DNA of 62,746 nt from an uncultured Bifidobacteriaceae bacterium (GCA_964356125.1 CAYHHH010000009.1:1-62746); one strand, 5' to 3'; shown: positions 2,533-52,347, counted from the stretch's first letter. Numbers and translations: made by a program. The notes: a model not told the origin generated them from the sequence alone.

Positions 2533-2552
2533 CCTATGACGCTCGTCATAGG
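2533..2552. promoter_or_regulatory. Palindromic operator candidate CCTATGACG-CT-CGTCATAGG (core TATGAC-N4-GTCATA) in the divergent regulator/ric intergenic region
   Basis: Read directly from the sequence. The centre lies 54.5 nt from the regulator ATG (2488) and 53.5 nt from the ric ATG (2596). The same core recurs at four other operon heads. Confidence 0.7.
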
Positions 2553-2595
2553 CGGTGCCCGGCCGCGCACGTAGTCTACGTGCAGCAGGAGGAGT

Positions 2596-3348
2596 ATGAC
2601 CCGATCGAAATTGGAAAGCTCAACGCTCGGCGACCTCGTCTCACGCGACTCCCGCGCCGGCGCGATTCTCGACCGCTACGGCCTCGACTACTGCTGCGGC
2701 GGTGCGCGCAGTCTCGCGGAGAGCTGTCTGGAGCGAGGCATCAATCTCGTCGCGGTGCTGTCGGAGCTGGAAGCGCTCGATCCCGAATCGCGCGAACGCG
2801 TCGCCGATGACCCCGCCGCGCTCGTCGACTACATCGTCTTACGCCATCACGCGTACGTCCGCGCATCGTTGCCGATCATTCAGGCGCACCTCACGAAGGT
2901 GGTGGCTGCACACGGCGCCAACCACGCGGAGCTGACCCTCGTCGATGCGGAGTTTTCCAAGGCGGCCAAGGAGCTGTCCCAGCACATGGTGAAGGAGGAG
3001 CAGGTGCTGTTTCCCCACATTCGCGCGCTGGCCGAGGCGGTTCGCAGCGGCGGGCCGCCGCCCCCGGACATGTTCGGGACCGTCCAGAACCCGATCCGCA
3101 TGATGGAAATCGAGCACGAGATGGTCGGCGATGTGCTGGCGGCAATTCGTGGGCTGACCGGCGGCTTCCAGCCGCCACCCGATGCGTGCCCGACGTATTG
3201 CCTGGTGCTCGAGGAGATCGCAGCCTTCGAGCGCGATTTCGACGCACACGTGCATCTCGAGAACCACGTGCTGTTCCCCAAAGCGGTCGAGCTGGAATCG
3301 ACCCTCGAGCATGCGACACGCGGGCTGAAATGCCGGCAATCGGAATAG
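2596..3348 (+). CDS. ric: Iron-sulfur cluster repair di-iron protein (RIC; ScdA/YtfE family)
   Basis: N-terminal ScdA_N signature (AILDRYGLDYCCGG). This is followed by hemerythrin-like His/Glu motifs (IVLRHHAYV, HMVKEEQVLFP, MEIEHEMVG, HVHLENHVLFP). GGAGGAG RBS before the ATG. Confidence 0.9.
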   Translation: MTRSKLESSTLGDLVSRDSRAGAILDRYGLDYCCGGARSLAESCLERGINLVAVLSELEALDPESRERVADDPAALVDYIVLRHHAYVRASLPIIQAHLTKVVAAHGANHAELTLVDAEFSKAAKELSQHMVKEEQVLFPHIRALAEAVRSGGPPPPDMFGTVQNPIRMMEIEHEMVGDVLAAIRGLTGGFQPPPDACPTYCLVLEEIAAFERDFDAHVHLENHVLFPKAVELESTLEHATRGLKCRQSE

Positions 3349-3361
3349 GGACAGGTGACAT

Positions 3362-4531
3362 ATGACGACTAGGAATTTCGTGAGAGCACTCGTACTGGCA
3401 GGGTCCACCCTCGCGCTTGCGATCGCCGTCAGCGCGTGCCAGCGGCAGAACGCGCCCGCGGGCAGCACAGGAGGGGTACCCGGATTTCTCGATATCAGCG
3501 TGCCGCCACACCCGGCTGTGACGGAGGCGGTTCTCGCGCGCGGCAAGGAGATCTACGACCTCAACTGCGCGCATTGCCACGGTGAGAAAGGCGATGGCGC
3601 GGGCTACGGGGCGCCGTTCCTCGTGCCGCCGCCCCGCGACTTCGTCGCCGCACAATTCAAATTCCGGACGACGGCGTCCGGTCAACTGCCGACCGATGAT
3701 GACATCTTCCGCATCATCTCGCGCGGCGCCACCGGCACCGGCATGCCGCCGTGGCAGTACCTGCTCGACGACAGCGATCGCTGGGCGCTCGTCGACTACG
3801 TCAAGACGTTCTCGCCGCGGCTGAAAGACAGCCCCGCGCGAACGGCGATGGTGATAGCGGCGCCGCCAAGCGACCACCGAGACATCGAAAACGGCCGCGA
3901 GGTGTACGTGAAGATGCAGTGCGCGAAGTGCCACGGCGACGACGGCCGCGGGGTCGGTCCGTCCTCCGCCACGTTGCTCGACGCCAAGGGCAAATACATC
4001 AACACGCGGGACTTCACGCTCGCCACGTCGTATCGCACGGGGTTTTCCGAGCGCGAAATCGTCCGGACGATGGAGACCGGCATGAACGGCACGCCGATGC
4101 CCTCCTACACGGGCGTCATCTCGCCGAAAGACCAGCACGACATGGTCGCCTACCTGATGACGATGGCGAGCCACGGATCGGGCAATCAACGCCGCCAGAG
4201 CGCGCGAAGCATGGAAGGCGTCGGGGAGCCGGCGCGCGTGATTACGGTGCGCGAACATGCGTGGAAGTTCGAACCCTCTGAAATCCGCATCAAGGCAGGC
4301 GAGGTCGTGAAGATCGAATTCTCGACGACCGACAACGGTCTCGGCGCCGGTCACGGCTTCGCGCTGGACGGGTTCGACCAGGAAGTGTTCATGAACGGCG
4401 CGATGGTCGGGTCGTCGCTGTCGACGACGTTCAAAGTCGACGAACCCGGCCGCTACAACTTCTATTGCTCGACGCAGTGCAGCACAACCGACCTGCATCC
4501 ACATATGCACGGCACACTGGTGGTCGAATGA
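3362..4531 (+). CDS. Lipoprotein-type dihaem cytochrome c fused to a C-terminal cupredoxin domain (NosC-like electron donor candidate)
   Basis: Signal LALAIAVSAC. Two CxxCH motifs (CAHCH, CAKCH). C-terminal beta-sandwich ending in GHGFALDG...YNFYCSTQCSTTDLHPHMHGTLVV, with Cys/His/Met copper-ligand candidates. Sits immediately upstream of nosZ. Confidence 0.8.
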   Translation: MTTRNFVRALVLAGSTLALAIAVSACQRQNAPAGSTGGVPGFLDISVPPHPAVTEAVLARGKEIYDLNCAHCHGEKGDGAGYGAPFLVPPPRDFVAAQFKFRTTASGQLPTDDDIFRIISRGATGTGMPPWQYLLDDSDRWALVDYVKTFSPRLKDSPARTAMVIAAPPSDHRDIENGREVYVKMQCAKCHGDDGRGVGPSSATLLDAKGKYINTRDFTLATSYRTGFSEREIVRTMETGMNGTPMPSYTGVISPKDQHDMVAYLMTMASHGSGNQRRQSARSMEGVGEPARVITVREHAWKFEPSEIRIKAGEVVKIEFSTTDNGLGAGHGFALDGFDQEVFMNGAMVGSSLSTTFKVDEPGRYNFYCSTQCSTTDLHPHMHGTLVVE

Positions 4532-4554
4532 CCACCGCGAACGGAGAAGGGCTC

Positions 4555-6390
4555 ATGACACGAATCTTTGCCGTCATTCTCGCCGCCATCGTTGCGACCG
4601 CGGCCCTCACACAGGCTTTCGGTTGCGCCGACACGGGCTCCGCCCGATCGCGCGCAGCCGAAGACGTCTACGTGGCGCCGGGTGAGCACGACAAGTACTA
4701 CGCGTTCCTGTCGGGAGGACAGAGCGGCTCTGTCTTTGTCGTCGGTATCCCTTCCGGACGGCTCATCCGAGAAATTCCTGTGTTCGAGCCGAGAGCGGCG
4801 TACGGATACGCCGTTCATCCAAACGACCCGCGCCGGCGCCAGCTCGAAGAGACCGGTGGCGCGTGGGGCGACACGCACCATCCGGCACCGTCGGAAACCG
4901 ACGGGGTGTACGACGGAAAGTATCTGTGGATTAACGATCTCGCCAACGGCCGGCTCGCGCGTGTCCGCCTCGACGTCTTCGAGACCGATCGCATCCTGAA
5001 GATTCCAAACATGCAAGGGGCGCACGGCATCGCCGTGATCTCGCCGAATACGAAGTACATCGGCGTGAACGGCGAGTTCGAGCAACCCACCGATGGCCTT
5101 GCGACAAACCCAGCGCCATACACGTCAGTCGTGTCGTTCATCGACCCCGATTCGATGGCGGTGAAGTTCCAGGTGCGCGTCAACGGCAACATCGACATCG
5201 CCGACAGCTCGAAAGACGGAAAATATTTCTTCGCGACCGTCTACAACCTCGAGCAGGGCAAGACGATGGGGGGCATGATTCAGTTCGATCGCGACGCGCT
5301 CGCCGCCGTCGACATCGCCGCCGCCGAAAAAGCGGTCGCCGACGGCAAGGCGGTCGTCCGCAACGGCGTGCCCATCATCGACCCCGAGAATGCGCCCGGC
5401 GTGCTAACGCTGATTCCGGTTCCGAAGAACCCGCACGGCGTCAACGTCACGCCGGACGGACGATACGTGGTCGCCAGCGGGAAGCTCTCTCCGACGGTCT
5501 CCATCATCGATGCCAGGACGCTGAAGATTGTGGCGGAGCCGGAAGTCGGCCTCGGACCGCTGCACACGACGTTCGACAATCGCGGCAACGCCTACACGTC
5601 GCTGTTCCTCGACAGCCAGGTCGTGAAGTGGAATATCGACAAAGCGGTCGCCGGCGCCGACGACTACATCGTCGACCGCATCAACGTGCACTACAACATC
5701 GGCCACCTGCAGGCATCGGGTGGCGAGACGATGAAGCCGACGGGCGATTTCCTCCTGGCGCTCAACAAGCTCTCGAAGGATCAGTACCTGCCGGTCGGGC
5801 CCGACATGCCCGAAGCGCAGGAGCTGATCGATATTTCCGGCGAGAAGATGCGGATGATCGGCGCCTTCCCGACGCCGCCGGAGCCCCACGATGCGGTCTT
5901 CATGCCGGCCACGTTACTCAAAGGCAAGGTCAAGCAGGTGTTCGACCTCGAAGAGCATTCCATCAAAGAGGGCCAGGAGAGCGTCACGCGCACCGGGCCC
6001 AACGCCGTGACCGTGAACATGACGATGATCCGCAGCGCGTATACGCCCGAGACCATCGAAGTGCGCGAAGGCGATCGCGTGACGTTCCGGATGACGAACG
6101 TTGAAACCATCCGCGACATGACGCACGGATTTGCGCTTCCGGATCATGGCCTCAACGTGTCGCTGCCGCCGGGCGCCACGAGGGAGATCACCATCGACAC
6201 GCCGAAGCCCGGCGTCTACTGGTTCTACTGCACGAACTTCTGCAGCGCGCTGCATCTGGAGATGCGCGGCCGTCTCGTCGTGCAGCCGAAGGACGGACCC
6301 GTCAAAATGAGCGACTGGCGCGCGGGCCAGAACGTCGTCGGCATGCAGGTGCCAGGGGTGCCGTCAACGGAGAAAGGCAATGCCCGCTAA
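4555..6390 (+). CDS. nosZ: Nitrous-oxide reductase, Sec/lipoprotein-type signal (clade II-like)
   Basis: ORF 4465..6390 trimmed to ATG 4555, which follows GGAGAAGGG. The N-terminus MTRIFAVILAAIVATAALTQAFGC has no twin-arginine motif. GDTHHP propeller His motif. C-terminal CuA motif FYCTNFCSALHLEM (C-x3-C-x3-H-x2-M). Confidence 0.95.
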   Translation: MTRIFAVILAAIVATAALTQAFGCADTGSARSRAAEDVYVAPGEHDKYYAFLSGGQSGSVFVVGIPSGRLIREIPVFEPRAAYGYAVHPNDPRRRQLEETGGAWGDTHHPAPSETDGVYDGKYLWINDLANGRLARVRLDVFETDRILKIPNMQGAHGIAVISPNTKYIGVNGEFEQPTDGLATNPAPYTSVVSFIDPDSMAVKFQVRVNGNIDIADSSKDGKYFFATVYNLEQGKTMGGMIQFDRDALAAVDIAAAEKAVADGKAVVRNGVPIIDPENAPGVLTLIPVPKNPHGVNVTPDGRYVVASGKLSPTVSIIDARTLKIVAEPEVGLGPLHTTFDNRGNAYTSLFLDSQVVKWNIDKAVAGADDYIVDRINVHYNIGHLQASGGETMKPTGDFLLALNKLSKDQYLPVGPDMPEAQELIDISGEKMRMIGAFPTPPEPHDAVFMPATLLKGKVKQVFDLEEHSIKEGQESVTRTGPNAVTVNMTMIRSAYTPETIEVREGDRVTFRMTNVETIRDMTHGFALPDHGLNVSLPPGATREITIDTPKPGVYWFYCTNFCSALHLEMRGRLVVQPKDGPVKMSDWRAGQNVVGMQVPGVPSTEKGNAR

Positions 6391-6940
6391 CCGCCGTCTC
6401 TTCTTCGCAGCGGCCGTCCTCGTGGTGGCCGCTGCGTGGCTTCCCTACTGGGGATTCGTGATGTCGGCGCCCCAGTACCCGGACGAGAGCCTCGTGCTCA
6501 ACATCTCGCGCCAGGGCATTACTGGTGATGTGCAGGAAGTCGAGACGCTGCAGCAGTACATCGGTGTGCAGTTTCCGAAACACCTTTCGGAGCTCGAATG
6601 GCTCGTGCCGGCTATGCTTGCACTAGCCGTCGTGCTCGCGATCGGCGGCGTCGCCGGCGCCGGACTCGCGGGGCAAATCATCCGCTGGACCGCCGTGGGA
6701 TTGTTTATCGCGCTGCTCGCTTTCTGTGCGGTGACGGTACAGCGAAACCTCTATGCGGTCGGCCACAACCGCAATCCCGACGCGCCGATCACCGCGATCA
6801 AGGACTTCACGCCGCGATTCATCGGGCCGACGAAAGTCGGCAACTTCACGGTGTGGTCGTTCCCGCACGTCGGCGGCCTCGCGCTGGTCGCCGCGCTCTC
6901 GCTCGCCGCGTTCGGATCGATGCGAGGCGTCCGGCCATGA
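6380..6940 (+). CDS. nosB: Small polytopic membrane protein of clade II nos clusters (NosB-like)
   Basis: About 4 hydrophobic segments. The position directly between nosZ and nosD matches the clade II arrangement. 11-nt overlap with nosZ and ATGA overlap with nosD. Assignment by context and topology only. Confidence 0.6.
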   Translation: MPANRRLFFAAAVLVVAAAWLPYWGFVMSAPQYPDESLVLNISRQGITGDVQEVETLQQYIGVQFPKHLSELEWLVPAMLALAVVLAIGGVAGAGLAGQIIRWTAVGLFIALLAFCAVTVQRNLYAVGHNRNPDAPITAIKDFTPRFIGPTKVGNFTVWSFPHVGGLALVAALSLAAFGSMRGVRP

Positions 6941-8277
6941 AGAAGGTGCTGCTTGCGGCGGCGTTCGCGGTCATGGCGATTCCGGGCGCCGGTGAAGCGC
7001 GCGTCTGGACCGTCGGCCGCGGCAGCACGGATTTTCCGCTCATCGCTCCCGCAATCGCGCACGCGGAAGACGGCGATGAGATTCGAATCGGACCAGGCGT
7101 CTATCGCGAGGATCTGGTGCTCGCGAAGCGCCTCTCGCTGGTTGGCGTGGGGCGGCCGGTCCTGTTCGGCACGGAGCGCGGCACGGTCATCGACGTGCGC
7201 GCCGATGGCTGCACGATCAGCGGTCTCATCATCGATGGCACCGGGGTGGGCGCCGGTAATCAGATGGACGCGGCCGTCCGCCTGACGTCCAACAACAACA
7301 TCGTCAGCGGCAACGAGATGCGGCGCGTCTTCTATGGGGTCGTCATCGCGGGGGGATCGGGCAACGTCGTCGCCGACAACTCGATCGAAGGGCTGCTCGA
7401 CCTGCCGTTCGGCCGGCGCGGCGATGGCATCTACGTCTATCAGGGCCCACGCAATCACATCCTGCGTAATCGGGTTGTCGGCCAGCGCGACGCCATCTTC
7501 CTGCAGTACGCCCACAACGTGCGCGTCGAGCACAACATCGTCGAGCGCTCGCGATACGGGCTCCACGACATGTTTTCCGACGACACGATCGTGCGTGACA
7601 ACGTGTTTCGCACGTCGCTCGTCGGCGCCAATATCATGAATTCGAAACGCCTGACGCTCGAGCGAAACGAGTTCGCGCACAACCGCGGCATCACCGCCGT
7701 GGGCCTGACCCTTAAGGATTGCGACGGATCGACCGTTTCCGACAACCGGTTTACAGGCAACGCCCGCGGACTGCAGCTCGACGGATCGTCCGGCAATCGA
7801 TTCGTGAAGAACCGGTTTGCGCAGAACGACGTCGCGGTGCGCCTCCTCGCCAGCGCCGAGCGCAACATGTTCTCGGCCAACGAATTCGTGCAGAACTGGA
7901 GCGACGTCGTCGAGAGCGGGCGCGACAGCACGAATGCCTGGAGCGTTGCGGGGGTCGGCAATCGCTGGAGCCGCTACAGCGGTTTCGACTTCGACGGCGA
8001 TGGCGTCGGCGAGTCCGCCCATTCACTGCTCCGCCCGTTCGAGCGCATTGAGGGGGCGAACGAGCTCGCGCGCCTCTATCTGCAGAGTCCCGCGGCTGGC
8101 GCGCTCGATCTGGCTGCTCGCAGCGTGCCTGCCTCAGGCGGTGCATCCATCGACGATCACCCACTGACCGGCGCGCCTCAACGCGGAACGGGCCGCGAAT
8201 GGCTCGTGGCCGCCGCACTCCTGCTCTTTCCACTTCTGCGAGCCGCGCGGCGCATGCGCGCGAAGGTGACGGCATGA
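6937..8277 (+). CDS. nosD: Periplasmic copper-binding beta-helix protein NosD
   Basis: ORF 6598..8277 trimmed to ATG 6937 (MKKVLLAAAFAVMAIPGAGEA signal). Repeated parallel beta-helix turns (NNNIVSGNEM, GNVVADNSIEG, HNIVERS, DNVFRTS, RNEFAHN, DNRFTGN, KNRFAQN). Confidence 0.9.
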   Translation: MKKVLLAAAFAVMAIPGAGEARVWTVGRGSTDFPLIAPAIAHAEDGDEIRIGPGVYREDLVLAKRLSLVGVGRPVLFGTERGTVIDVRADGCTISGLIIDGTGVGAGNQMDAAVRLTSNNNIVSGNEMRRVFYGVVIAGGSGNVVADNSIEGLLDLPFGRRGDGIYVYQGPRNHILRNRVVGQRDAIFLQYAHNVRVEHNIVERSRYGLHDMFSDDTIVRDNVFRTSLVGANIMNSKRLTLERNEFAHNRGITAVGLTLKDCDGSTVSDNRFTGNARGLQLDGSSGNRFVKNRFAQNDVAVRLLASAERNMFSANEFVQNWSDVVESGRDSTNAWSVAGVGNRWSRYSGFDFDGDGVGESAHSLLRPFERIEGANELARLYLQSPAAGALDLAARSVPASGGASIDDHPLTGAPQRGTGREWLVAAALLLFPLLRAARRMRAKVTA

Positions 8278-9260
8278 TCGAGCTGCTTGGACTCAACAAA
8301 ACGTACGGCACGCGCGCCATCCTCTCGAACGCCTCGCTCACCGTCAGAGGCGGCGAGAGCATCGCCCTCATCGGCGCGAACGGCAGCGGCAAGACGACCA
8401 CGCTGCGGTGCGCGATCGGGCTTGCGCGGCCTGCGAGCGGTCGCATTCTGATCGACGGCATCGATATGACGGCCCGCCCATGCGACGCACGCGCGAAGCT
8501 CAGTTACCTGGCGCAGCGCACAGAATTTCCGAGCACGCTGACCGTCCGTGAAATTCTGTCGGTCGTCGCACAGCTTCGCGGCGCGGATGCCGGCACCGTC
8601 GACCGTGAGATTTCTCTGTGCGGTTTAAGCCGGCTGGCGGGACGGACCGTCGGCCAGCTCTCGGGCGGCGAGCGTCAGCGGATTGCCATCGCGGCGCTCT
8701 TTATTCCCGATGTTCTCGCCTATGTGCTCGACGAGCCGACGACCAACCTCGACCCGATTGGGGTGCAGGTCCTCGTCGACCGTCTCGCCGCCGCGAGAGA
8801 CGCTGGGCACGCGGTGTTGTTCACCACACACGCCACCGCGGAGCTTGGCGACCTGGCGACAGCCGTCGCGACGCTGCGCGACGGACAGATTGCCCTGGCT
8901 GCACACGATATCCCGCCGGGCGAGCGCCACCTGTCAATGGCGGTCGACGGCCGAGTCGAATCGTGGGTCGGCGCCGCTCTTCGAGCCGGCGCCCGCCGCG
9001 CGTGGCCTGGCAGCGGCCGTCTCCACGTCGTTGTGTCAGACGGCTCCGTCAGCGCGTTGCTGGGACGGCTGGAATGCGAGGGGGCGCGCGTCACTGATTA
9101 CCGGAGCGAAAGCGCGCTCGCGGCCGCGCTCGAAGGGCTGTACACGGAGGAACATCATGATGAAGTCGCGCGTCCTCACAGCGTCGATCGCTGTGTGGCT
9201 GATGGCGAGTTGTGGCGCGGCGCGGCCTGGGCCCGAGCCGATTCCGCTGGACCGCGCTAA
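8274..9260 (+). CDS. nosF: ABC transporter ATP-binding protein NosF
   Basis: Start ATG 8274 (ATGA overlap with the nosD stop). Walker A GANGSGKTT, signature LSGGERQR, Walker B AYVLDEPT. The reading frame runs 104 nt into nosL. Confidence 0.9.
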   Translation: MIELLGLNKTYGTRAILSNASLTVRGGESIALIGANGSGKTTTLRCAIGLARPASGRILIDGIDMTARPCDARAKLSYLAQRTEFPSTLTVREILSVVAQLRGADAGTVDREISLCGLSRLAGRTVGQLSGGERQRIAIAALFIPDVLAYVLDEPTTNLDPIGVQVLVDRLAAARDAGHAVLFTTHATAELGDLATAVATLRDGQIALAAHDIPPGERHLSMAVDGRVESWVGAALRAGARRAWPGSGRLHVVVSDGSVSALLGRLECEGARVTDYRSESALAAALEGLYTEEHHDEVARPHSVDRCVADGELWRGAAWARADSAGPR

Positions 9261-9588
9261 CTGCGCGCGGTGCGGAATGCTGATCTCGAGCGACGCGAAC
9301 GCCGCGCAGTCGCAGACCGACGGTCAGCCGACGCGGTTCTTCGACGACATCGGATGCCTGGCGGCTGAGCCCGCCGCGCAGGCTGACACCACGCGTCGAT
9401 ACGTGCGCCTCGCATCGGGCGGCTGGGCCACGACCGACGCCGCGTGGTTCGCACGATCGCTCACCGCGAGAACGCCGATGGACTACGGCGTGCTCGCTTT
9501 CGCAACCGCAGATGAGGCGCGAGCCGCCGATCGCGATCGACAGGCGCACCAATGGCCGGCGATCGTCGCGCTCGCGAAATCCCGATGA
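9157..9588 (+). CDS. nosL: Copper chaperone lipoprotein NosL
   Basis: ATG 9157 follows a GGAGG RBS. Lipobox LMASCG. Conserved CARCGM motif and ...FDDIGC... as in NosL. Confidence 0.85.
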   Translation: MMKSRVLTASIAVWLMASCGAARPGPEPIPLDRANCARCGMLISSDANAAQSQTDGQPTRFFDDIGCLAAEPAAQADTTRRYVRLASGGWATTDAAWFARSLTARTPMDYGVLAFATADEARAADRDRQAHQWPAIVALAKSR

Positions 9589-10409
9589 CCAGCCCCTTGA
9601 TGACGATCGCACGCATGGAATTCACGGCCACAGGACGCGTCTGGTGGATTCGCCTGCTGACCGTCGCGTACGCGCTGCTGAGCGTCGCGATGGCATACGC
9701 ATCGGGCGTCATCGGCGAGACAGAACGCGGTGAAGCGTTCGCGCGGCTCACCGTCGCCGTGCTTCCGCTCGCGCTGACCCTCGTGCCGTTGGCTGCACTG
9801 CTGATCGGTGTGACCGGCGCCGCGGCCGACGATGCGACCGGCTTCCTGTTGTCGCAACCGGTGTCGCGTCTGCAACACCTGGCCGGCACGTGGCTCGGCC
9901 AGGCCGCCGCCCTGTCCTTCTCAGTGATTGCGGGTTTCGGAACGGGCGGGGTGATCGTGTCGCTGATTTCCCGCGCAAGCGACTTTGGCAGGTTTGGCGT
10001 CCTCGTTGCGGCGTGCCTCCTCGCGGCCCTCGCCTTTCTCTCGATTGCCACGCTAATCGTCGCGGCCGTGCGTCACCGAAGCGCCGCGTTGGGCCTCGCC
10101 GCGTTCATCTGGTTCGTCGCGGTCATCCTGTACGACGCAGCGATGCTGTCGATTGCGGTCTGGGCGACAGGGGTGAACGGCGCCCGCGTGTTGTTCGTGT
10201 CGGTGTTCGGCAACGTGGTGGATCTCGTGCGCGTGCCGACTCTGCTGCTGGCAGGGACGCCGCACGTGCTGGGCGCCGCGGGTGAGAGCTGGCTGCGCGC
10301 GCTTGGTGGTCCAGAGCCGGCCGCGCTGCTGTCAGTCTCTGTCCTGGCGGCGTGGATCCTGGCTCCTCTCGCACTGGCCCTGAAAATTCATTCGGTCCGG
10401 GACGTATAA
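9585..10409 (+). CDS. nosY: ABC-2 type permease NosY
   Basis: ATG 9585 (ATGA overlap with the nosL stop). Six hydrophobic segments. Context with nosD/F/L. Confidence 0.85.
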   Translation: MTSPLMTIARMEFTATGRVWWIRLLTVAYALLSVAMAYASGVIGETERGEAFARLTVAVLPLALTLVPLAALLIGVTGAAADDATGFLLSQPVSRLQHLAGTWLGQAAALSFSVIAGFGTGGVIVSLISRASDFGRFGVLVAACLLAALAFLSIATLIVAAVRHRSAALGLAAFIWFVAVILYDAAMLSIAVWATGVNGARVLFVSVFGNVVDLVRVPTLLLAGTPHVLGAAGESWLRALGGPEPAALLSVSVLAAWILAPLALALKIHSVRDV

Positions 10410-10430
10410 GAGGCGGCGATCGGCTGGCAT

Positions 10431-10748
10431 ATGATGAGCGGCGTGGCCACTACCGCCGCCGTCGCCGAAGCCGTGCGCACGGTGATCGATCCGGAGTTGG
10501 GCATCAATCTGGTCGATCTCGGCCTGGTGTATCAGATCGTCACCGCGCCCGATCGCGTCCGCATCGTGCTCACGATGACGAGCCCCGCCTGTCCCTTGAG
10601 CGAGTACATAAAGAAGCTGGTCAATCAGGCGGTGCATGCGACAGTGACCGATGCGGGCGAAGTGGAGGTCTCGATCGTGCTGGATCCACCGTGGTCGCCC
10701 GAGATGATGTCGGCCGAGGCGCGTCGTGAGCTCAACCTCGATCTCTAA
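10431..10748 (+). CDS. DUF59/MIP18-family metal-sulfur cluster assembly factor (SufT/PaaD-like)
   Basis: Signature VIDPELGINLVDLGLVY...LTMTSPACPL... Confidence 0.85.
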   Translation: MMSGVATTAAVAEAVRTVIDPELGINLVDLGLVYQIVTAPDRVRIVLTMTSPACPLSEYIKKLVNQAVHATVTDAGEVEVSIVLDPPWSPEMMSAEARRELNLDL

Positions 10749-14551: not shown

Positions 14552-14562
14552 CCGGCCCCCCG

Positions 14563-28544: not shown

Positions 28545-28554
28545 GGTGCTGGTC

Positions 28555-44783: not shown

Positions 44784-45559
44784 GGGTGTCGCTGAATTTG
44801 AATGAGATCCTCAGCCGAGCCGCACATCATCGGCGTGTCGTCGACCAGCTCCGGGCGCACCGTGAGACCAGCCGGACCGCCTTCAACCCCGGCGCGCGCG
44901 CATACCCCATCGAGGAACCGGAGGAAGACGGATCCGAGCGCCCCGTAAAACATGCCGACGCCGTCGGCGGCCAGCGCGGTGCCGAACGCGCGGCCAAAAT
45001 GCCCGAGGTGGTCGCGCAGGAAGGCACGTTCGGCCTGTGCGGTCACCTCAAGCGTCTCCGCGTCGCCTTCGCCTTCGAGCTCCATCGCCAGAAGCCGGGC
45101 CTGCTTCCGATTCAGGAACTCGAGGAACTCGCACTCACAGGCGACGTGATCCAGCCGCACCTCGGACGCCGAGGGCGGAGTGAGCCCGAAGGCAAGGTAA
45201 TACCCGGCGAGGTCGGCGAGCTGCTGCGGCTGCTGGAACTTGTTGTCGTCGCCGAACTCGGTTTCACAGGCACACACCAGCCCGCGCGTGGTGTGGCCGA
45301 AGACCCGCCAGTACTGGCCCGCCAGCGCGTCGAGGTCGCCGACCGCGACGGCCGTCAACTGCCGAACCGCTGTGTCCAGAGCGGCGGTCCCGTCCGGCAC
45401 GTCGACGCATCCCAACGCCTCGACGAACAGAGAAAAGCCGTCAGAGGCGCCCATGTCGCGGAGCCGGGCGCGCGTCGGCTCCTGAAACGCGATGGAAAAC
45501 GTCCGGTAGACAACAGCCATCGCGAGCGAGTCGTTCATGCGGCTGACGGGATCGAGCAT
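44780..45559 (-). CDS. TorD/NarJ-family maturation chaperone for the type II molybdoenzyme (NxrD/DdhD-like)
   Basis: ORF trimmed to ATG 45559 (GAGGA RBS, 8 nt after the beta-subunit stop). YWRVFGHT...CETEFGD...QQLADLAGYYLAFGL...DHVACECEFLEFL is the TorD-family signature. Confidence 0.8.
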   Translation of the reverse strand: MLDPVSRMNDSLAMAVVYRTFSIAFQEPTRARLRDMGASDGFSLFVEALGCVDVPDGTAALDTAVRQLTAVAVGDLDALAGQYWRVFGHTTRGLVCACETEFGDDNKFQQPQQLADLAGYYLAFGLTPPSASEVRLDHVACECEFLEFLNRKQARLLAMELEGEGDAETLEVTAQAERAFLRDHLGHFGRAFGTALAADGVGMFYGALGSVFLRFLDGVCARAGVEGGPAGLTVRPELVDDTPMMCGSAEDLIQIQRHP

Positions 45560-45567
45560 GTTGGTCC

Positions 45568-46836
45568 TCAGATCGAATTCGCGTGCTTGTTCGTGCGAAC
45601 GTGCAGCGGTTCCTCGACCGTCGTCCGGAAGAGCTCCTGGCCCCGCTTGCCGAACGCGATAACCGTGTCGTTGTAGAGCTCGACCTTCCTGCCGTGCAGC
45701 GTGCCTTCGTAGATCTTGGGACCTTCCTGGATCTCGTACTTGTAGATGATGCGGTTCGACCGCCTGAACAGCTGGAGCACCGCGAGCAGCTCGCGGCTCG
45801 GGTTCGCGTAGCGGTCGATCGCACCGTCGACACCCGGCCCGAACATCTGCGTCAGATACGGCCGCGCCACCCATCGTGGGGGAATGTAGTAGCCGTTGGG
45901 CTGCGTCCCGAACTGCGGATACAGAGGCAAGGCCACCTTGGCGACATGGACCATGTAATAGAGCGGGTTGTAACGATCCTCAGCCCACGTGCCGTCTTCC
46001 GCCATCTGCACCAGCCCCTGCATACGGATCTGTCCGATGCACGCGGCCATGCAGCGCGTCTCCATGGGCTCGCCGCCGCTCTCCGGATCCGTCCCCTCGA
46101 CCCTCGGATAGCAGGCGATGCACTTCTCGCTCGTACGGGTGTTGCCCCGGTACATCGTCTTCTTGTACGGGCAGGCTTCGACGCACTTGCGGTAGCCACG
46201 GCACTCGGACTGATCGAGGAGAACAATGCCGTCTTCGGGCCGCTTGTAGATCGCATTACGAGGACACGCCGCCAGGCAGGCCGGATACGAGCAGTGATTG
46301 CAGATGCGGGCCAGATAGAAGAACCAGGTGTTGTGCACCGGAAGTTGCTCACCGGTGGAGTGGAGCTTGTCGCGCACGCCGGGCTTGCCAAGCGGATTGT
46401 CCTCGTAGATGTTCGGGGAATTCCATTCCTCGTCGGTTGGGAGGTAGCCAAGCACGCGCGCGCTGTCGGGGCTGAGCGCGCGATCGGCCGCCTCGAAGAT
46501 CGTCTGTCCTTCGAACTTGCCGTGAGGGGCCGACCGGTTATCGGCCTCGGCGCCGCCCCATACCTGACCGTCGGGGTTTGCCTGTTCCAGCAGGCCCAGG
46601 ATCTTGGCATCCCACCACTGTGGGTAGCCGCCGTACGGCTTCGTCTCGACATTGGCCCACCACATGTGCTCCTGTCCCTTGCTGAAGGTCCATGTCGACT
46701 TGCACGCCATGGTACAGCTCTGGCACGCGATGCAGCGGTTGATGTTGAAGACGAACGCGAACTGCCGCGACGGGTAGCGCGCGTCGTGCGGATAACTCAT
46801 GTCGCGGCCGAGCTGCCAGTTTTTCACGGTCGCCAT
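45568..46836 (-). CDS. Type II DMSO-reductase-family beta subunit, NxrB-like (4 Fe-S clusters)
   Basis: The N-terminus MATVKNWQLGRDMSYPHDARYPSRQFAFVFNINRCIACQSCTMACKSTW resembles Nitrospira/anammox-type NxrB as I remember it. Other Cys groups are CNHCSYPACLAACP, CRGYRKCVEACPY and CIACYPR...CMAACIGQIR. At 422 aa it is longer than the Ebd/Pcr/Ser-type beta subunits. Confidence 0.85.
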   Translation of the reverse strand: MATVKNWQLGRDMSYPHDARYPSRQFAFVFNINRCIACQSCTMACKSTWTFSKGQEHMWWANVETKPYGGYPQWWDAKILGLLEQANPDGQVWGGAEADNRSAPHGKFEGQTIFEAADRALSPDSARVLGYLPTDEEWNSPNIYEDNPLGKPGVRDKLHSTGEQLPVHNTWFFYLARICNHCSYPACLAACPRNAIYKRPEDGIVLLDQSECRGYRKCVEACPYKKTMYRGNTRTSEKCIACYPRVEGTDPESGGEPMETRCMAACIGQIRMQGLVQMAEDGTWAEDRYNPLYYMVHVAKVALPLYPQFGTQPNGYYIPPRWVARPYLTQMFGPGVDGAIDRYANPSRELLAVLQLFRRSNRIIYKYEIQEGPKIYEGTLHGRKVELYNDTVIAFGKRGQELFRTTVEEPLHVRTNKHANSI

Positions 46837-46838
46837 CG

Positions 46839-47168
46839 TCAGCTCCTCGACCGGATCAGCCGAAGCGGCTTGATCGCGATCTCGTCGTCAGGTGCATCCG
46901 TCACCACGCAGCGTACGCGCCCCCAGACGCTCAGGCTATCGTCGACGATGCGCGCGATCGCGTCCTCGCCAAGGAGCTGCCAGGCCTGGTAGGCCCCGGC
47001 ATAAAACGGCGCGCGGAACAGCGCGAGAATCTGCGCGCGCGTGTGCCCGAGCTGGGCGAACTCGTCGGCGAACGCCTCGGCCATGCCCCGCGTCACCCCC
47101 TCATCACCGGGGAGCGCGACGCCGACGAGCTCCTGCGGGTCCTGCGGATCCGGATCGTCGTACGGCAT
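46839..47168 (-). CDS. Small acidic hypothetical protein between the alpha and beta subunit genes
   Basis: 109 aa, MPYDDPDPQDPQELVG.... Separated by 1 nt from the alpha stop and 2 nt from the beta start. The codon usage looks like that of its neighbours. No family recognised. Confidence 0.5.
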   Translation of the reverse strand: MPYDDPDPQDPQELVGVALPGDEGVTRGMAEAFADEFAQLGHTRAQILALFRAPFYAGAYQAWQLLGEDAIARIVDDSLSVWGRVRCVVTDAPDDEIAIKPLRLIRSRS

Positions 47169-47169
47169 G

Positions 47170-50100
47170 TCAGCCTCTCTTCTTTGTGAGGTCGCCGGCG
47201 AGATATCGCTTCATCGCCTCGCTCTCGTTGTCTGGCGAGTAGCCGGTCGTGGCCGGAGCCCAGATGCCTTTGCCGCCCATGCCGCCGTCCTCGGCTTTCG
47301 TCACCCGCACGAGCGTTTCCTTCGGCACCGTGTTGACGGCGTGGTTGTCGGCTTCACCGCCGAAGATGAACGACATGGCCGCCTTGGCCTTGTGGAAGAG
47401 CGTGTCGGTCTGGTGCATCGGCATGTGCCAGTTGCGCGTGATCGACTGTTGCGACCCGTAGCGGAGGTTCGCCTGATATCCCGTGTTGGCCGACAACGCG
47501 CGACCATCGGGTCTGGTCTCGTGCGCCTTTACGCTCTTCTCGGTCGCGATGAACGGCGCGTGTTTCATCATCACGATGTTGTAGGGGTACGCGCGGTTGT
47601 AGGTGACGCGCAGCATGCACCGCGCCACGCGGTAGAACGGATCGTCGGGCTTGGCCCCGATGTATGGGCGATCGGCGGGGTTCGCGTCGATGTAGACATA
47701 ATCGCCGTCGTTGATGCCCAGATCGCGCGCCGCCTGCGGGTTGATGTGCATCTGGTGCTCCCCGACGCACGGCGCACGCTTGTCGAGGCGGTACGGATCG
47801 CCGAAGTTCGAGTCGTAGAGCATGTGCCAATCGACGTTCGACCAGCCTGAATGAACCCGGTGCCGTGTCTTGGGCGTCAGGCAGTAGAACTGAAATCCCT
47901 TTTCCCACAGGAAGTTCTTGGTGACTCGCGCCTGCGCCCACGGCATCTTGATATTGCGGATCGTGCGATCGTCCCAGTGCTCGGCGGTCCGCGGGATGCC
48001 GTAGTCCTCGGGACGGATGTACGGATTCCCACTGACGATGACATTGGGCAGATACGGCGTCGCCTCGGGCCCTTCGCGATGCACGATGAAGTTCTCGCCG
48101 TACTCGATGGCCTCCGGCACGTCGGCGTAGGCATGCAGCCGGCCGGTGTCGGTGTGGAACGGCTCGCTATCGTGCACCTGCTCGTAGAACGGAATGCGCG
48201 GATACGTGCGGAAGTTCAGCAGGGCGCCTCCCGGAGGGCCGTACTTGCCGGCCATGAGGTCGGAGACCGTATAGCCGCTCGTCGTGGTGGACGTGTCGAG
48301 CAGCCGTTGCAGATAGATGTCGCGATTGCCCTCGTGCTCGAACTTGAACATCTCGACGAACCGCTGGTCACCGGTCACCTCCGCCATGGCCCTGCCGATG
48401 CCGGCAAGAATGGTGAGATCGTCCTTGCTGTCGAACACCGGCGGGATGCCGCCTTTCCAGACCTGCAGGAATGGATTGGAACAGCTGGCGGTGACTTCGA
48501 GACCCTCGAATTCCATCCACGAGTTCGCCGGCAGCGCGAGATCGGCGTACTCGATCGAGGCGGTCATCTGGATGTCCATCGAGACGATCATTTCGATATT
48601 CGGATTGACGTTCTTGATCATCTCGTAAGCGTGCTTGGCGTTGTTAATCAGGTTCACGTTATTGAAGATCAACGCCTTGGTGGGCGTCGGCATGTGCGTG
48701 GCGCCGGTAAAATTCTTTCGGCCGAACTTGGGCGTCTGCACGATGAGCGCCTTGTCGCCGTGATTCCAGTACGCAGGCTCCTCATCCTTTGTGTAGGCGT
48801 GGGCGTGGATGTCCTTGCCCGGAGCGTTGGGGTCGAGGGTCAGGTGGAAGGGATCTTCGGCCACCCATCCCTTGAAGCCGGGGCCCGACCAGGCCGACCC
48901 CTGAAACAGCGCCGCCTTGTAATTGCCCGCCCACGTGTGACAGCCGGCACCCGGCTTCCCGATGTTGCCGGTGAGCATCAACGGCAGATAGGCCGCGCGA
49001 TTCATCTCGGTGGCGTGGAACCAGTGGTTGATGCCCTCCCCCTGATGGATGGCGGCAGGCGCGATCGTGGCCAGATCCTCGGCGAGCTGCTCGATGAGAT
49101 CTTTCGGCGCCCGTGTGATCTCGGCGACGGTATCGAGGTCGTAATCCTTCAAGTGAACCTCGTACATCGTCCACAGCGTCGCGCACTCCACCGTTTTCCC
49201 ATCGGCGAGCTTGATCGGGAATCGCCCGGCGAGCGCGGGCTCGATGCCTCGCTTCGCCATGACGTCGCCGATGTCCTCGCGTGTGACGGCGACCGGCGCG
49301 TTCTTCTTCGTGTCCCAGACAACGAAGTCGCCGAGCTGGGCGTGCTGCTCGAGCGTGAGCCCCTGGATCTTCATCGACGGGCCGTCTGGCCCGATCGTCG
49401 TCGTGTAGCCGGGAAACACCTCGTGCGCCCGGAGCCGCTTCAGCGTGTCGGTGCGGACGAGCAGCGGGAAGTCGGTGAACTGCTTGACGAACTTCTCGTC
49501 GTACTGCTTCTTGTCGATCATCAGGCGCGTGATCCCGAGGAACAGCGCCGCGTCGGTCTGCGGCCGGATCGGAATCCAGTAGTCGGCCTTGGTGGACGGC
49601 GGCCCGTACTCCGGCGCGATGACGACGATCTTCCCGCCCCGCTCCATGCACTCGATGAACCAGTGCGAGTCGGTCAGCTTGTTCTCGACCAGGTTCTTCC
49701 CATCCATGACAATGAGCTTGGAGAACCGGAGGTCGTTGAAGTCGCAGTCGGACGCCTGCAGCCCGTGCACCCACGGGTGGCCTGGCGCCTGATCGCCGTG
49801 CCACGTGTAGTTGGAGAAATTGCGGCCGGCCATGGCCTTGTCTTCCCCCACGCCCCGGATCTTCGCGTCGAGCAGCGCCATCGAATTGTTCAGGCGGTAC
49901 ATCCCGTACTTGCCCAGTACGCCCAGCAGACCCATCCCCCCGCGCATCTTGAACGTGCGCGTGCCGGCCCCACCCGTCTCGCGCACCATCTCGGGCTGAT
50001 AGCCCTGCGCGAGCAGTCGCTTGGTGCCCTCTTCTCCGCTGTATCGCCGGGCGATCGCGTCCAGCGCTCGGGCGATGTTCGAGAAGGCATCCTCCCAGGA

Positions 50101-50640
50101 GATCTGGATGAACTCGTCGTCTCCGCGGCGGCTGAAGTAGTACTTGTCCTTGTTCTCCGGCGTCAGCTCGGGGAACCCCGCATCGGCCCAGGCCTTCCAT
50201 CCCCGGCGTACGATGGGATGGCGCAGGCGGTACGGCCCGTAGAGCACGCGGTGGAACGTGTAGCCCTTGGCGCACTGGCGCGGGTTCCAGTTGTTGGTCG
50301 CGTGATTGCCGTAGAGGTCGGCGTAGTCCTGGTAGTCGTAGGTGGCGCCGCTTCGCACGACAATGCCGTTGCGCACGTACGCCCGGATGCGGCAGGCGTG
50401 GGTGTCGTTGGGCGAACACACCCAGTCGAATGTCGAATCGTAGCGATACTGGTCGTGATAGATCTTCTCCCAGTCGCGACCGACGCGTCTCGCCAGGGGA
50501 TTCCCATCGTCCGCCGGTCGGAAGAGCCGGCAGCCACTCTCGAGGCCGGCCAGCGAGAGCGCAGTGCCCGCGCCGAGCCATTGCAGGAACCGGCGCCGTG
50601 CGAGATCGGCATGGTCGTTGTGATTGGGTGTGTCGCTCAC
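47170..50640 (-). CDS. Tat-exported type II DMSO-reductase-family molybdopterin alpha subunit, NxrA/periplasmic Nar-like
   Basis: GTG 50640 lies 6 nt after AAGGAG. Tat motif ARRRFLQWLGAG. N-terminal Fe-S motif VCSPNDTHACRIRAYVRNG (C-x3-D-x3-C instead of the NarG H-x3-C-x3-C). 1156 aa. Confidence 0.85.
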   Translation of the reverse strand: MSDTPNHNDHADLARRRFLQWLGAGTALSLAGLESGCRLFRPADDGNPLARRVGRDWEKIYHDQYRYDSTFDWVCSPNDTHACRIRAYVRNGIVVRSGATYDYQDYADLYGNHATNNWNPRQCAKGYTFHRVLYGPYRLRHPIVRRGWKAWADAGFPELTPENKDKYYFSRRGDDEFIQISWEDAFSNIARALDAIARRYSGEEGTKRLLAQGYQPEMVRETGGAGTRTFKMRGGMGLLGVLGKYGMYRLNNSMALLDAKIRGVGEDKAMAGRNFSNYTWHGDQAPGHPWVHGLQASDCDFNDLRFSKLIVMDGKNLVENKLTDSHWFIECMERGGKIVVIAPEYGPPSTKADYWIPIRPQTDAALFLGITRLMIDKKQYDEKFVKQFTDFPLLVRTDTLKRLRAHEVFPGYTTTIGPDGPSMKIQGLTLEQHAQLGDFVVWDTKKNAPVAVTREDIGDVMAKRGIEPALAGRFPIKLADGKTVECATLWTMYEVHLKDYDLDTVAEITRAPKDLIEQLAEDLATIAPAAIHQGEGINHWFHATEMNRAAYLPLMLTGNIGKPGAGCHTWAGNYKAALFQGSAWSGPGFKGWVAEDPFHLTLDPNAPGKDIHAHAYTKDEEPAYWNHGDKALIVQTPKFGRKNFTGATHMPTPTKALIFNNVNLINNAKHAYEMIKNVNPNIEMIVSMDIQMTASIEYADLALPANSWMEFEGLEVTASCSNPFLQVWKGGIPPVFDSKDDLTILAGIGRAMAEVTGDQRFVEMFKFEHEGNRDIYLQRLLDTSTTTSGYTVSDLMAGKYGPPGGALLNFRTYPRIPFYEQVHDSEPFHTDTGRLHAYADVPEAIEYGENFIVHREGPEATPYLPNVIVSGNPYIRPEDYGIPRTAEHWDDRTIRNIKMPWAQARVTKNFLWEKGFQFYCLTPKTRHRVHSGWSNVDWHMLYDSNFGDPYRLDKRAPCVGEHQMHINPQAARDLGINDGDYVYIDANPADRPYIGAKPDDPFYRVARCMLRVTYNRAYPYNIVMMKHAPFIATEKSVKAHETRPDGRALSANTGYQANLRYGSQQSITRNWHMPMHQTDTLFHKAKAAMSFIFGGEADNHAVNTVPKETLVRVTKAEDGGMGGKGIWAPATTGYSPDNESEAMKRYLAGDLTKKRG

Positions 50641-50659
50641 GGCGCGCTCCTTCTCTCTG

Positions 50660-52285
50660 TCACCGCTCGAGCACGAGCTCTTGCCAAATCGTCACCGACT
50701 TCTTCCCATCGCGGTCCCCGGCGCTGCCGTTCCACACGGCGAAGGCCACCGGCACACGTCCGCCGGGCGACAACTCGACTTCACCGGACGGCGCGGACAG
50801 CGCCCGCGTAAACTGCACCCGATATGAGCCGGTCATGTGCTCACCGTTGGCCACCACCGACTGCGAGGCGCGCGGATGGGCCTTGAGCGTGCCGAATCCC
50901 TGCGCCGTCAGATTTTCGGCGGCGCTGTGACGCGTCGGATCCGCAACGATGTTGCCGGCGCCCCAGGCGGTCACAAAGGCAGGATCGGACTGGAGCGTCA
51001 ACGCATTTCGCGTGGGTTGCTCGAGTGGCGACTTGGACGAGTTTGGGTAGGAATCAATACCAATGTTGGGGTAGATCTTGTCGATCTCCTGAAACGCCGG
51101 CGCCATATCGGCCTGCCGTTCCGCCTTCCACATCCAGATGTTCACGGGTGCGCCCGGCTGGCCCATGGCGAAGAACGGCGGATCGGGCGCGAGCGCGAAT
51201 TCGGCGGCAACACTATCGCGAAAATCCTGAGGCCGAATCGCGGTCGCGTCGTGCGTGTTGTCTTCCCACTTCAGGAGCATCGCGAGGGTCTTCCCGTCGT
51301 GCACCGCTCGCACCGTGATTTCTTCGGGACGATCGGTGCGCCACCACAGCGGCATCATGTGAAGGTTGACGGCCGGTGTGTTGCGCCATACGCCCGAATC
51401 GGCATGTGTCGGCAACTGCGGCACCCGCGTCGCCACGATCCTGAACTGCTTCATCTCCACTTTCGCGCGCTGCGCATCGCTCGAGAGCGATCGGACGAAA
51501 TGCACGAGATGCCATCCGTCGCTGCCCTGTAGATAGCCGCTCTGTGGCATCGGCGATCCGGGCAACCCCGCGACGATGCGGCGATAGACGCTCGCAGCGT
51601 CGGGGCTTCCCTTGAAGACGCCGAGTGTCAAATCGCGAGGCCGTGTCGGATAACCCTTTGAGTCGACTTGTTTCTGCGCGCCGTCGCCTCGACCTGTCGC
51701 GCCGTGGCACGGGGCGCAACCTTTCAGGTACAGCTCGGCGGCGCGAGCCTGTGCCGCCGCGTCATACGCAGGCTCTACGGGTACCGTGACGGGACCGCCG
51801 GCGCCGTTGCCCCATTTGTCAGGTTCGTGACTGGCTTTGATGACAAGCGGGCGCTTCGAGAACGCCTTCACGTAGTGCACGAGCCCCCAGCGCGTTTCTT
51901 CACTGAGGTGCGCCCACGAGGGCATGGCCGAACCCGGCATGCCGCGCGAGATCGTCCGAAACAGATCCACGTCGGTCGGCACACCGTCCCACGTCGAAAT
52001 CAACCGGTACTGCCCCAGCGTGAAGTCTCTGGGGCGCGGATAGAGCAGATACGCGGCGGCACCGAGCCCATCACCCGCGCTGCCGTGACAGGCCAGGCAC
52101 TCCTTTTGGAAGGTCGTACGTCCGAGGTCGATGAGATCGCCTGAAGCCGGCAGGACTTGTGCGGGCTCCAGGCTGTGCGGGACGGGTCCAGATTCAAGGC
52201 GTTCTGGCACCGATCGTGTACAGCCGGCCGCGATGACAAGAATCCAGAGGCAGAGGGACCAACGCCGCACAGCGTCCGAAGGCAT
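50660..52285 (-). CDS. Lipoprotein-type dihaem cytochrome c fused to an EB_dh (ethylbenzene dehydrogenase gamma / NxrC-like haem b) domain
   Basis: ATG 52285 lies 5 nt after GGAGG. Signal LWILVIAAGC. CLACH and CAPCH motifs, homologous to the dihaem part of 3362..4531. The C-terminal 260 aa (WRNTPAVNLHMMPLWW...VHDGKTLAMLLKWED...FAVWNGSAGDRDGKKSV) fit the DMSO-reductase type II haem b subunit pattern. Confidence 0.75.
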   Translation of the reverse strand: MPSDAVRRWSLCLWILVIAAGCTRSVPERLESGPVPHSLEPAQVLPASGDLIDLGRTTFQKECLACHGSAGDGLGAAAYLLYPRPRDFTLGQYRLISTWDGVPTDVDLFRTISRGMPGSAMPSWAHLSEETRWGLVHYVKAFSKRPLVIKASHEPDKWGNGAGGPVTVPVEPAYDAAAQARAAELYLKGCAPCHGATGRGDGAQKQVDSKGYPTRPRDLTLGVFKGSPDAASVYRRIVAGLPGSPMPQSGYLQGSDGWHLVHFVRSLSSDAQRAKVEMKQFRIVATRVPQLPTHADSGVWRNTPAVNLHMMPLWWRTDRPEEITVRAVHDGKTLAMLLKWEDNTHDATAIRPQDFRDSVAAEFALAPDPPFFAMGQPGAPVNIWMWKAERQADMAPAFQEIDKIYPNIGIDSYPNSSKSPLEQPTRNALTLQSDPAFVTAWGAGNIVADPTRHSAAENLTAQGFGTLKAHPRASQSVVANGEHMTGSYRVQFTRALSAPSGEVELSPGGRVPVAFAVWNGSAGDRDGKKSVTIWQELVLER

Positions 52286-52331
52286 GACGACCTCCAATGG
52301 CTACGTTTTACAGTGAGCCGCAACGGCCGCC

Positions 52332-52347
52332 TATGACGGCTGTCATA
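52332..52347. promoter_or_regulatory. Palindromic operator candidate TATGAC-GGCT-GTCATA upstream of the NXR-like operon
   Basis: Read directly from the sequence. The centre lies 54.5 nt upstream of ATG 52285. Confidence 0.7.

Follow-up and report, generated by a model that had tools for sequence, protein, structure and literature searches.

A TATGAC-N4-GTCATA palindrome as probable operator of a Crp/Fnr-family regulator linking nitrogen-oxide respiration operons in an uncultured acidobacterium

In a contig of 62,746 nucleotides (nt) (CAYHHH010000009.1, assembly GCA_964356125.1, deposited under the name of an uncultured Bifidobacteriaceae bacterium; the whole of it is called the window below), the source lineage of which is an uncultured, Vicinamibacterales-like acidobacterium of soil, the palindrome TATGAC-N4-GTCATA (TATGACNNNNGTCATA) stands upstream of five transcription units and is in all likelihood the operator through which the Crp/Fnr-family regulator encoded at 1793-2488 would activate them in the class II manner. 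Bound as a dimer to the palindrome, the centre of which would lie about 41.5 bp before the transcription start, the regulator would recruit RNA polymerase to promoters with a -10 element and no evident -35 element. The units so headed would be the ric-nos operon, narCGHJI (probably with a leaderless mRNA), an operon for an enzyme of the nitrite oxidoreductase (NXR) type, and two blocks of genes for exported redox proteins and proteins of unknown kind; the regulator gene shares the first site, and autoregulation may occur. The in silico analysis established the existence and conservation of the site, the promoter geometry and the linkage of palindrome and regulator gene.

Acidobacteriota are abundant in soil and mostly uncultured, and many carry a Sec-type nosZ, on which account they may be sinks of nitrous oxide (N2O). 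To our knowledge, the control of nitrogen-oxide (N-oxide) respiration in this phylum is essentially unknown. The palindrome offers a sharply defined operator of almost 24 bits, a named candidate regulator and a predicted promoter architecture, with which regulons may become readable directly from metagenome-assembled genomes.

The palindrome in the window and in related loci

An exact search of the whole window returned the five copies that a preliminary description of this DNA had listed (Table 1), and none of 100 dinucleotide-preserving shuffles of the window contained a match. Because the G+C content of the window is 64.5%, such an A+T-rich 12-mer is very improbable by chance; the core TGAC-N4-GTCA, with 0.98 occurrences expected, was confined to the same five positions. 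When up to three mismatches were allowed, no one-mismatch copy was found in the window, and one two-mismatch copy (11825) and three three-mismatch copies were added, which corresponds to the chance level. The two-mismatch copy (11825-11840, TCTGACGGCCGCCATA) is flanked by narI and the last gene of the nos operon, the 3′ ends of which converge there, and is probably a chance match.

By gene calls and Pfam annotation all five palindromes are intergenic. A mechanically set open reading frame with a GTG start (34804-36894) was recorded as overlapping site 3; the database gene call (670 amino acids, aa) begins at ATG 36816, and site 3 is therefore intergenic. The spacers of sites 1 to 5 (GCTC, GAGC, CGCC, GGCC and GGCT, respectively) and the flanks differ among the copies, as had been described, and every one of the six distances from palindrome centre to ATG was reproduced, namely 53.5 nt (ric), 54.5 nt (regulator), 54.5 nt (first gene of the NXR-type operon), 42.5 nt (narC), 77.5 nt (FG-GAP gene) and 93.5 nt (pyrroloquinoline quinone (PQQ) gene). 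Site 4, in which each arm is longer by one complementary base and the spacer, GGCC, is complementary to itself, is the perfect 18-bp palindrome reported earlier; the arms of sites 1-3 also extend by 2-3 bases, and these extensions were not kept across genomes.

Orthologues of the regulator gene (52-85% identity) were present in 68 loci of about 20 kb each (denoted by L numbers), which were nearly all from metagenome-assembled genomes of Vicinamibacterales or other Acidobacteriota, and amounted with the window to 1.17 Mb. This DNA contained 52 exact, 14 one-mismatch and 13 two-mismatch copies of the palindrome, against chance expectations of about 0.01, 0.4 and 9, respectively (A and T at about 0.165, G and C at about 0.335 each), and 50 of the 52 exact copies were non-coding and upstream of genes, although 85% of the bases were coding. 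No copy with zero or one mismatch was found in 0.94 Mb of control loci, which consisted of 80 loci of PQQ-gene paralogues taken from a genome scan (several phyla, four Vicinamibacterales, no close orthologue among them). Nearly all real sites were thus exact or one base off, and the motif is close to its maximum of 24 bits, as would be expected, by the reasoning followed here from information theory, for a small regulon in a large genome.

It is very improbable that these copies belong to a dispersed REP-like or mobile repeat, or to a chance or structural element (hairpin, terminator) that does not serve regulation. For such a reading, the 12 specified bases vary unusually little, exact copies outnumbering one-mismatch copies as given above, and the palindrome is able to form a 6-bp hairpin; against this, when 32 sites oriented by their -10 hexamer were aligned, conservation was at background directly beyond the 16 bp and the spacer was merely G+C-biased, so that the longer REP-like element with conserved flanks that was looked for in this alignment was not found. 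In addition, copies stand at orthologous promoters despite diverged flanks, Rfam gave no family match anywhere in the window, and the placement upstream of genes and the empty shuffles point the same way. The earlier view of a recognition site rather than a copied repeat is upheld by these results.

Promoter geometry and the regulator protein

Both flanks of 65 exact sites (130 directional flanks) were scanned for TANNNT at offsets 10-70. In 32 of the 130 flanks the hexamer began at offset 30, which corresponds to a distance of 29.5 nt to the centre of the palindrome; it began at offset 31 in six flanks and at each of the other offsets in zero to three; at offsets 29-31 it was present in at least one direction at 35 of the 65 sites. 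The -10 hexamer spans positions -12 to -7, and class II Crp/Fnr activator sites are centred at -41.5. A -10 element that begins 29.5 nt from the centre therefore places the palindrome at -41.5, the class II activator geometry. In the window, the hexamers at that offset (Table 1) are all five directed towards the downstream operon.

Because the phase between site and -10 element is fixed, activation by contact with RNA polymerase is predicted here in preference to repression. The converse, that the adjacent regulator is a repressor that would block the -35 region until nitric oxide (NO) or anoxia releases it, agrees with the overlap of the palindrome with the place of a -35 element and with the NO-responsive repression common for ric, nor and hmp elsewhere, for example by NsrR (PMC1274295). 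A repressor requires no fixed phasing, yet the -10 element is found at a single offset, and no -35-like conservation was present in the oriented alignment of 32 sites; both features are typical of class II activation, and repression is accordingly rated as improbable.

At narC, the conserved block TCTAGTTG ends 5 nt before ATG 19031 (6-nt spacing to the A), leaving no space for a Shine-Dalgarno sequence, and TTCTAGTT followed by CCATG is kept in both narC orthologues (L183, L184). This conserved block, together with an ATG situated 42.5 nt from the palindrome centre, suggests that the narC mRNA is leaderless.

The product of 1793-2488 consists of a cNMP-binding-like beta-barrel and a Crp-type helix-turn-helix (PF00027, E-value 9e-22; PF13545, 1e-13; PF00325, 6e-5) and was aligned over its full length to mycobacterial CRP structures; the similarity to the DNR structure 3dkw was weak (E-value 6e-14), and weaker than that to mycobacterial CRP. 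Among 62 orthologues the recognition helix GTTIET[CAST]IRIMSRW was nearly invariant, paralleling the invariant DNA motif, which itself has the 5-4-5 layout and TGA-N6-TCA core of Crp/Fnr boxes that the preliminary description had pointed out. In the alignment of GTTIETCIRIM to RETVGRIL of CRP, the equivalents of Glu181 and Arg185, by which the TGA core is read, are kept (61 of 62 orthologues), and Ile occupies the position of Arg180. In the comparison of Rodionov et al. (2005, PMC1274295), a G at motif position 3 was correlated with Arg180, and another base with a residue other than Arg; with Ile at position 180 and A at motif position 3, protein and DNA agree with this published rule. In the sensor domain, Ala86 (61/62), Tyr90 (60/62), His122 (55/62) and Cys107 (51/62) are conserved among the orthologues. 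In two loci (L036, 7919-8611; L051, 13806-14498) the main regulator gene is accompanied, at a distance of a few kb, by a further Crp/Fnr paralogue whose recognition helix is another one (GTTLYTVSRTLSKW).

Two assignments to known types were tried and rejected. The oxygen sensor FNR sensu stricto ligates a [4Fe-4S] cluster by an N-terminal cysteine cluster and a central Cys; here only Cys107 and Cys197 are present, the N-terminal Cys motif is absent, and the NCBIfam Fnr score was 35 bits against a cutoff of 228. In place of the FNR box TTGAT-N4-ATCAA, the half-site was TATGAC in 52 of 52 exact and in most near-exact copies. A CRP of the cyclic AMP (cAMP) type contacts cAMP by a Glu and by Arg-Ser/Thr of its phosphate-binding cassette; the ‘FGE’ of Mycobacterium tuberculosis CRP is ‘FGA’ here, the Arg-Thr-Ser positions are Phe-Pro-Ala, and the equivalog score was 56 bits against a cutoff of 266. 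No curated NCBIfam equivalog cutoff was reached, the best being FixK (64 bits, cutoff 300).

Several points weigh against class II activation by this regulator. Roughly half of the sites have no strict TANNNT at the predicted distance, and within the window only site 1 has it; the palindrome is symmetric, and the direction of control was read from nothing but the adjoining genes and the -10 hexamer; for transcription of the regulator gene itself the site would be centred near -53.5, which is no canonical activation position; 24 of 64 regulator loci are without a site in the approximately 20 kb fetched; and the factor that truly binds could be a Crp/Fnr paralogue encoded at some other place in the genome. 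The latter two points, like the adjoining of regulator gene and site (to be expected of any target) and the nearby second paralogue in L036 and L051, would be explained if a true operator were bound by another factor, either a Crp/Fnr paralogue or an unrelated dimeric regulator, and the adjacent regulator gene were a mere target. Such an arrangement is considered unlikely, since gene and site co-occur across orthologues down to 52% identity, with a site at most 3 kb from the regulator gene in 39 of 64 orthologue loci and at most 300 nt from it in 22, since layout and core are of the Crp/Fnr type, and since the recognition helix matches the motif in invariance and follows the residue-base rule, whereas that of the nearby paralogues is different. 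Physical binding of the palindrome by the product of 1793-2488 is thus the prediction that is retained.

Extent of the regulon and relation to known systems

The earlier proposal of one operator for ric-nos, narC and the NXR-type operon was backed by phylogenetic footprints. An equivalent of site 1 is present in many related loci, where the palindrome precedes ric alone, ric-regulator operons, or ric divergent from the regulator gene. At site 2, the palindrome is retained in both narC orthologues retrieved (L183, L184; 74-75% identity), at a distance of 41.5-42.5 nt to the ATG, and the sequence further upstream has diverged. At site 5, the exact palindrome was found at all five acidobacterial orthologous operons with upstream sequence (L074, L075, L076, L077 and L089), and it was the sole conserved island in the alignment upstream of NXR-type operons. 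No palindrome was found at the orthologous NXR operons in loci of KSB1, Cytophagia and Handelsmanbacteria.

Two loci of Methylomirabilota (L082, L084) carry the exact palindrome (TATGACGTGGGTCATA, at about 5783) approximately 60 nt upstream of the NXR-type operon; the flanks that were fetched with it showed no gene for the regulator. From these palindromes, the regulator family and its operator probably extend past Acidobacteriota. The NXR-type alpha subunit is 72-85% identical across loci labelled Acidobacteriota, Methylomirabilota, KSB1, Handelsmanbacteria, Rokubacteria and Alphaproteobacteria (L074-L090), which suggests horizontal spread. In one locus binned as Gemmatimonadota (L087, JANNOC010000029.1), the proteins are 94-95% identical to those of the NXR-type operon in the window; because the other close relatives are all Acidobacteriota, a binning conflict or a recent transfer is likely.

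Further genes stand behind the palindrome in relatives, including a gene for qNor (753 aa; a NorB that has a cytochrome c-like domain) and one for an NnrS/DUF1858 protein, each with the regulator gene next in line, genes for small hemerythrins, nos operons whose first gene encodes a cupredoxin or a cytochrome c, nrfH-nrfA, an AhbD-like radical-SAM/SPASM gene (TIGR04053), a B12-binding radical-SAM gene, and COX1-like and Usp genes. Such a gene set is typical of the NO-responsive regulons of DNR, NnrR, HcpR and NsrR (PMC1274295). From these conserved targets, the signal would be NO or N-oxides under low oxygen, and neither cAMP nor an FNR-type iron-sulfur (Fe-S) cluster would be involved.

For the two remaining units, which the preliminary description had named sugar-type periplasmic dehydrogenase clusters and placed under the same operator, the support was partial. 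Site 4 is kept at 77.5 nt in an 86% identical orthologue (L179), in which the similarity to the window starts at the palindrome and the FG-GAP block stands beside NnrS, a B12-binding radical-SAM gene with a palindrome of its own, and ric. An 84% identical orthologue (L180) is without the site, its gene being situated 30 nt after the last gene of an NXR operon, and no palindrome was found at orthologues of 73% and 64% identity. At site 3, the sole outside orthologue (L185, 86%) has GATGACCGCGATCATA, with two mismatches, and the same TAAAAG 21 nt downstream in another gene context. Contigs of the same species (L186-L188) keep both sites, and FG-GAP or DUF6807 genes adjoin the regulator gene or nos in the closest clade only (L002-L005, L061). 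The extension of the regulon to the two exported-protein blocks is, as read from these footprints, real in this species, evolutionarily young and lineage-specific, and not a conserved regulon feature.

As to what these blocks may do, the label of sugar dehydrogenases is doubtful: it was based on domain names, and the solved structures nearest to the two Tat-exported flavoproteins are those of respiratory urocanate reductase, the flavocytochrome c3 fumarate reductase of Shewanella and 3-ketosteroid dehydrogenases (E-values 1e-30 to 1e-25). The FG-GAP protein had no relative among solved structures in the PDB comparison; the relatives that a pattern scan of genome and metagenome contigs gave for its gene were all of about 40% identity and belonged to other phyla, and closer ones came from a large protein search. 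These exported proteins could pass electrons to the cytochrome c pool of the periplasm, or they could reduce organic acceptors; both roles would fit an anaerobic regulator. It is a tentative suggestion that whole blocks of exported proteins (DUF1080/FG-GAP, Tat-flavoproteins, ThuA-like, NIPSNAP, and PQQ propeller with barrel) have come under the N-oxide regulator in this Vicinamibacterales lineage. If this were true, very common clusters of soil bacteria would be part of anaerobic respiration, not of aerobic sugar catabolism. The palindromes give a first functional handle on DUF1080/FG-GAP/ThuA/flavoprotein clusters.

The closest published motif is that predicted for HcpR1 of delta-proteobacteria and cyanobacteria, wyTTGACnnnnGTCAArw, which stands before hcp/frdX or norB and adjoins the regulator gene (Rodionov et al. 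2005, PMC1274295). HcpR1 is likewise a Crp/Fnr factor without the FNR cysteine cluster, with a 5-4-5 palindrome and the same GAC/GTC inner bases, is often divergent from or adjoining NO-related targets (norB in Synechocystis), and keeps the Glu181 and Arg185 equivalents with a residue other than Arg at 180. The present system differs from it in motif and targets: the half-site here is TATGAC, with A instead of T at motif position 3 and an outer T that is also invariant, and the HcpR1 regulon centres on hcp, whereas the targets here are ric, nor, nos, nar and the NXR-type operon; hcp was not seen among about 70 target genes inspected. DNR and NnrR, which sense NO by haem, share the regulon logic, being cysteine-less Crp/Fnr activators of nor and nos (and nir in proteobacteria) with an FNR-like box at the class II position (PMC1274295). 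They differ in their box (CTTGATnnnnATCAAG or similar, CTTGAT-N4-ATCAAG-type), and in being proteobacterial, and in the system described here nar and the NXR-type operon are direct predicted targets. FNR, FixK and the Nss of Campylobacteria (TTGA-N6-TCAA; nap, nor, clade II nos) belong to the same superfamily and have the same TGA-N6-TCA core (PMC11539149, PMC5582078), and Crp/Fnr control of clade II nos, with TTGA-N6-TCAA sites and a Sec-type NosZ, has been proposed in Campylobacteria (PMC11539149). From these the present regulator differs by the absence of an Fe-S cysteine cluster, by scores far under the FixK, Fnr, FnrL and CRP equivalog cutoffs and by another half-site. DnrT, from the nitrate-respiration element of Thermus thermophilus, is a Crp-family activator tied to a narC-containing narCGHJI operon and is mentioned as a lead only.

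No description of TATGAC-N4-GTCATA, or of an acidobacterial regulon of such a kind, was found in the literature searched, the coverage of which was incomplete, with RegPrecise outside it. The type of regulon, in which a cysteine-less Crp/Fnr factor governs N-oxide respiration and NO defence, is already well described (PMC1274295); the operator sequence is a variant unlike the described boxes, and the principle is not new. That a heterotroph should have an anammox/Nitrospira-type NXR controlled together with nar and nos suggests that the enzyme acts on nitrate or nitrite in the periplasm during anoxia.

Gene content of the window

The earlier gene labels were borne out in outline by Pfam, NCBIfam and PDB comparisons (Table 1). 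The NXR-type operon is, as judged from its sequence, that of an anammox/Nitrospira-type periplasmic nitrite oxidoreductase with a gamma subunit fused to a dihaem cytochrome c; its alpha subunit matched NxrA of the Kuenenia nitrite oxidoreductase (7b04_B) with 1777 bits over the full length, and the label ‘NXR-like’ is therefore accurate. The minus-strand region 19124-42506 is an unbroken co-directional array of exported proteins with, in total, three DUF1080 (‘3-keto-disaccharide hydrolase’)/FG-GAP, two Tat-exported FAD_binding_2 and three ThuA-like proteins and, additionally, NIPSNAP, a PQQ propeller, an OMP_b-brl_4 barrel, DUF5916 and DUF6807. By signal peptide, NxrA, both flavoproteins and NIPSNAP are Tat substrates, and the FG-GAP proteins, the PQQ protein, DUF6807 and NosZ have Sec-type leaders (that of NosZ being of the Sec/lipoprotein type).

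Table 1. Palindromes, -10-like hexamers and transcription units of the window (positions counted from its first nucleotide).
Feature	Position	Strand	Context	Remark or basis
Palindrome 1, TATGACGCTCGTCATA	2535..2550		between the divergent regulator gene and ric-nos operon	exact match; equivalent site at ric/regulator in many related loci
Palindrome 2, TATGACGAGCGTCATA	19066..19081		upstream of narCGHJI	exact match; kept at narC orthologues L183, L184
Palindrome 3, TATGACCGCCGTCATA	36902..36917		upstream of PQQ dehydrogenase/outer-membrane barrel block	exact match
Palindrome 4, TATGACGGCCGTCATA	42576..42591		upstream of FG-GAP/Tat-FAD/ThuA/NIPSNAP block	exact match; kept in L179
Palindrome 5, TATGACGGCTGTCATA	52332..52347		upstream of NXR-type operon	exact match; kept in orthologous operons
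-10-like hexamer TAGTCT	2572..2577	+	ric-nos	begins 29.5 nt from centre; predicted start site near 2584
Possible -10 TCTAGT or overlapping TAGTTG	within 19037..19044	-	narC	within conserved TCTAGTTG block
-10-like TAAAAG	36875..36880		PQQ block	
-10-like CATGCT	42549..42554		FG-GAP block	
-10-like TAAAAC	52305..52310		NXR-type operon	
Crp/Fnr-family regulator	1793..2488	-	231 aa from ATG 2488	Pfam cNMP_binding, HTH_Crp_2, Crp
ric-nos operon	2596..11829	+	RIC/ScdA (hemerythrin), cytochrome c-cupredoxin, NosZ, NosD, NosF, NosY, Fe-S assembly protein, 367-aa protein of unknown kind	Pfam, NCBIfam, N-termini
Respiratory nitrate reductase operon	11849..19031	-	narC-narG-narH-narJ-narI	Pfam; NarG 1523 bits vs TIGR01580 equivalog
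Site-3 array	19124..36816	-	PQQ propeller, OMP_b-brl_4 barrel, 303-aa protein, DUF1080/FG-GAP, Tat-FAD, two ThuA-like, DUF5916, small membrane proteins, DUF1080/FG-GAP, DUF6807	Pfam; short gaps; signal peptides
Site-4 block	36951..42506	-	FG-GAP/DUF1080, Tat-exported FAD_binding_2, ThuA-like, Tat-NIPSNAP	Pfam, PDB comparison, N-termini
NXR-type operon	43511..52285	-	dihaem cytochrome c fused to EB_dh haem-b domain, Tat-NxrA-like Mo subunit, 109-aa protein, NxrB-like, NarJ-like chaperone, unknown protein, CMD-family protein	Pfam, NCBIfam type II DMSO reductase subunits

The genes of the NXR operon, of the two exported-protein blocks and of nar (11849-52285, approximately 40 kb) all share the minus strand, and the gaps between them are mostly short. 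As four of the five palindromes punctuate this run, it has the appearance of a modular anaerobic-respiration island with internal promoters. Between site 5 and a B12-binding radical-SAM gene (about 53191-54825), approximately 840 nt (52348-53190) are without a convincing gene; in L179 and L183 the radical-SAM gene has its own palindrome 48-52 nt upstream, and none is there in the window. Just past the island, a HipA-like kinase gene (55350-56947, minus strand; HipA_C, E-value 1e-50) with a small HTH_31 gene before it forms a HipBA-type toxin-antitoxin pair. A second dehydrogenase cluster (57216-61691, minus strand; PQQ-cytochrome c, GMC oxidoreductase and gluconate 2-dehydrogenase subunit 3) is without a palindrome, and some periplasmic dehydrogenases of this DNA thus lie outside the regulon.

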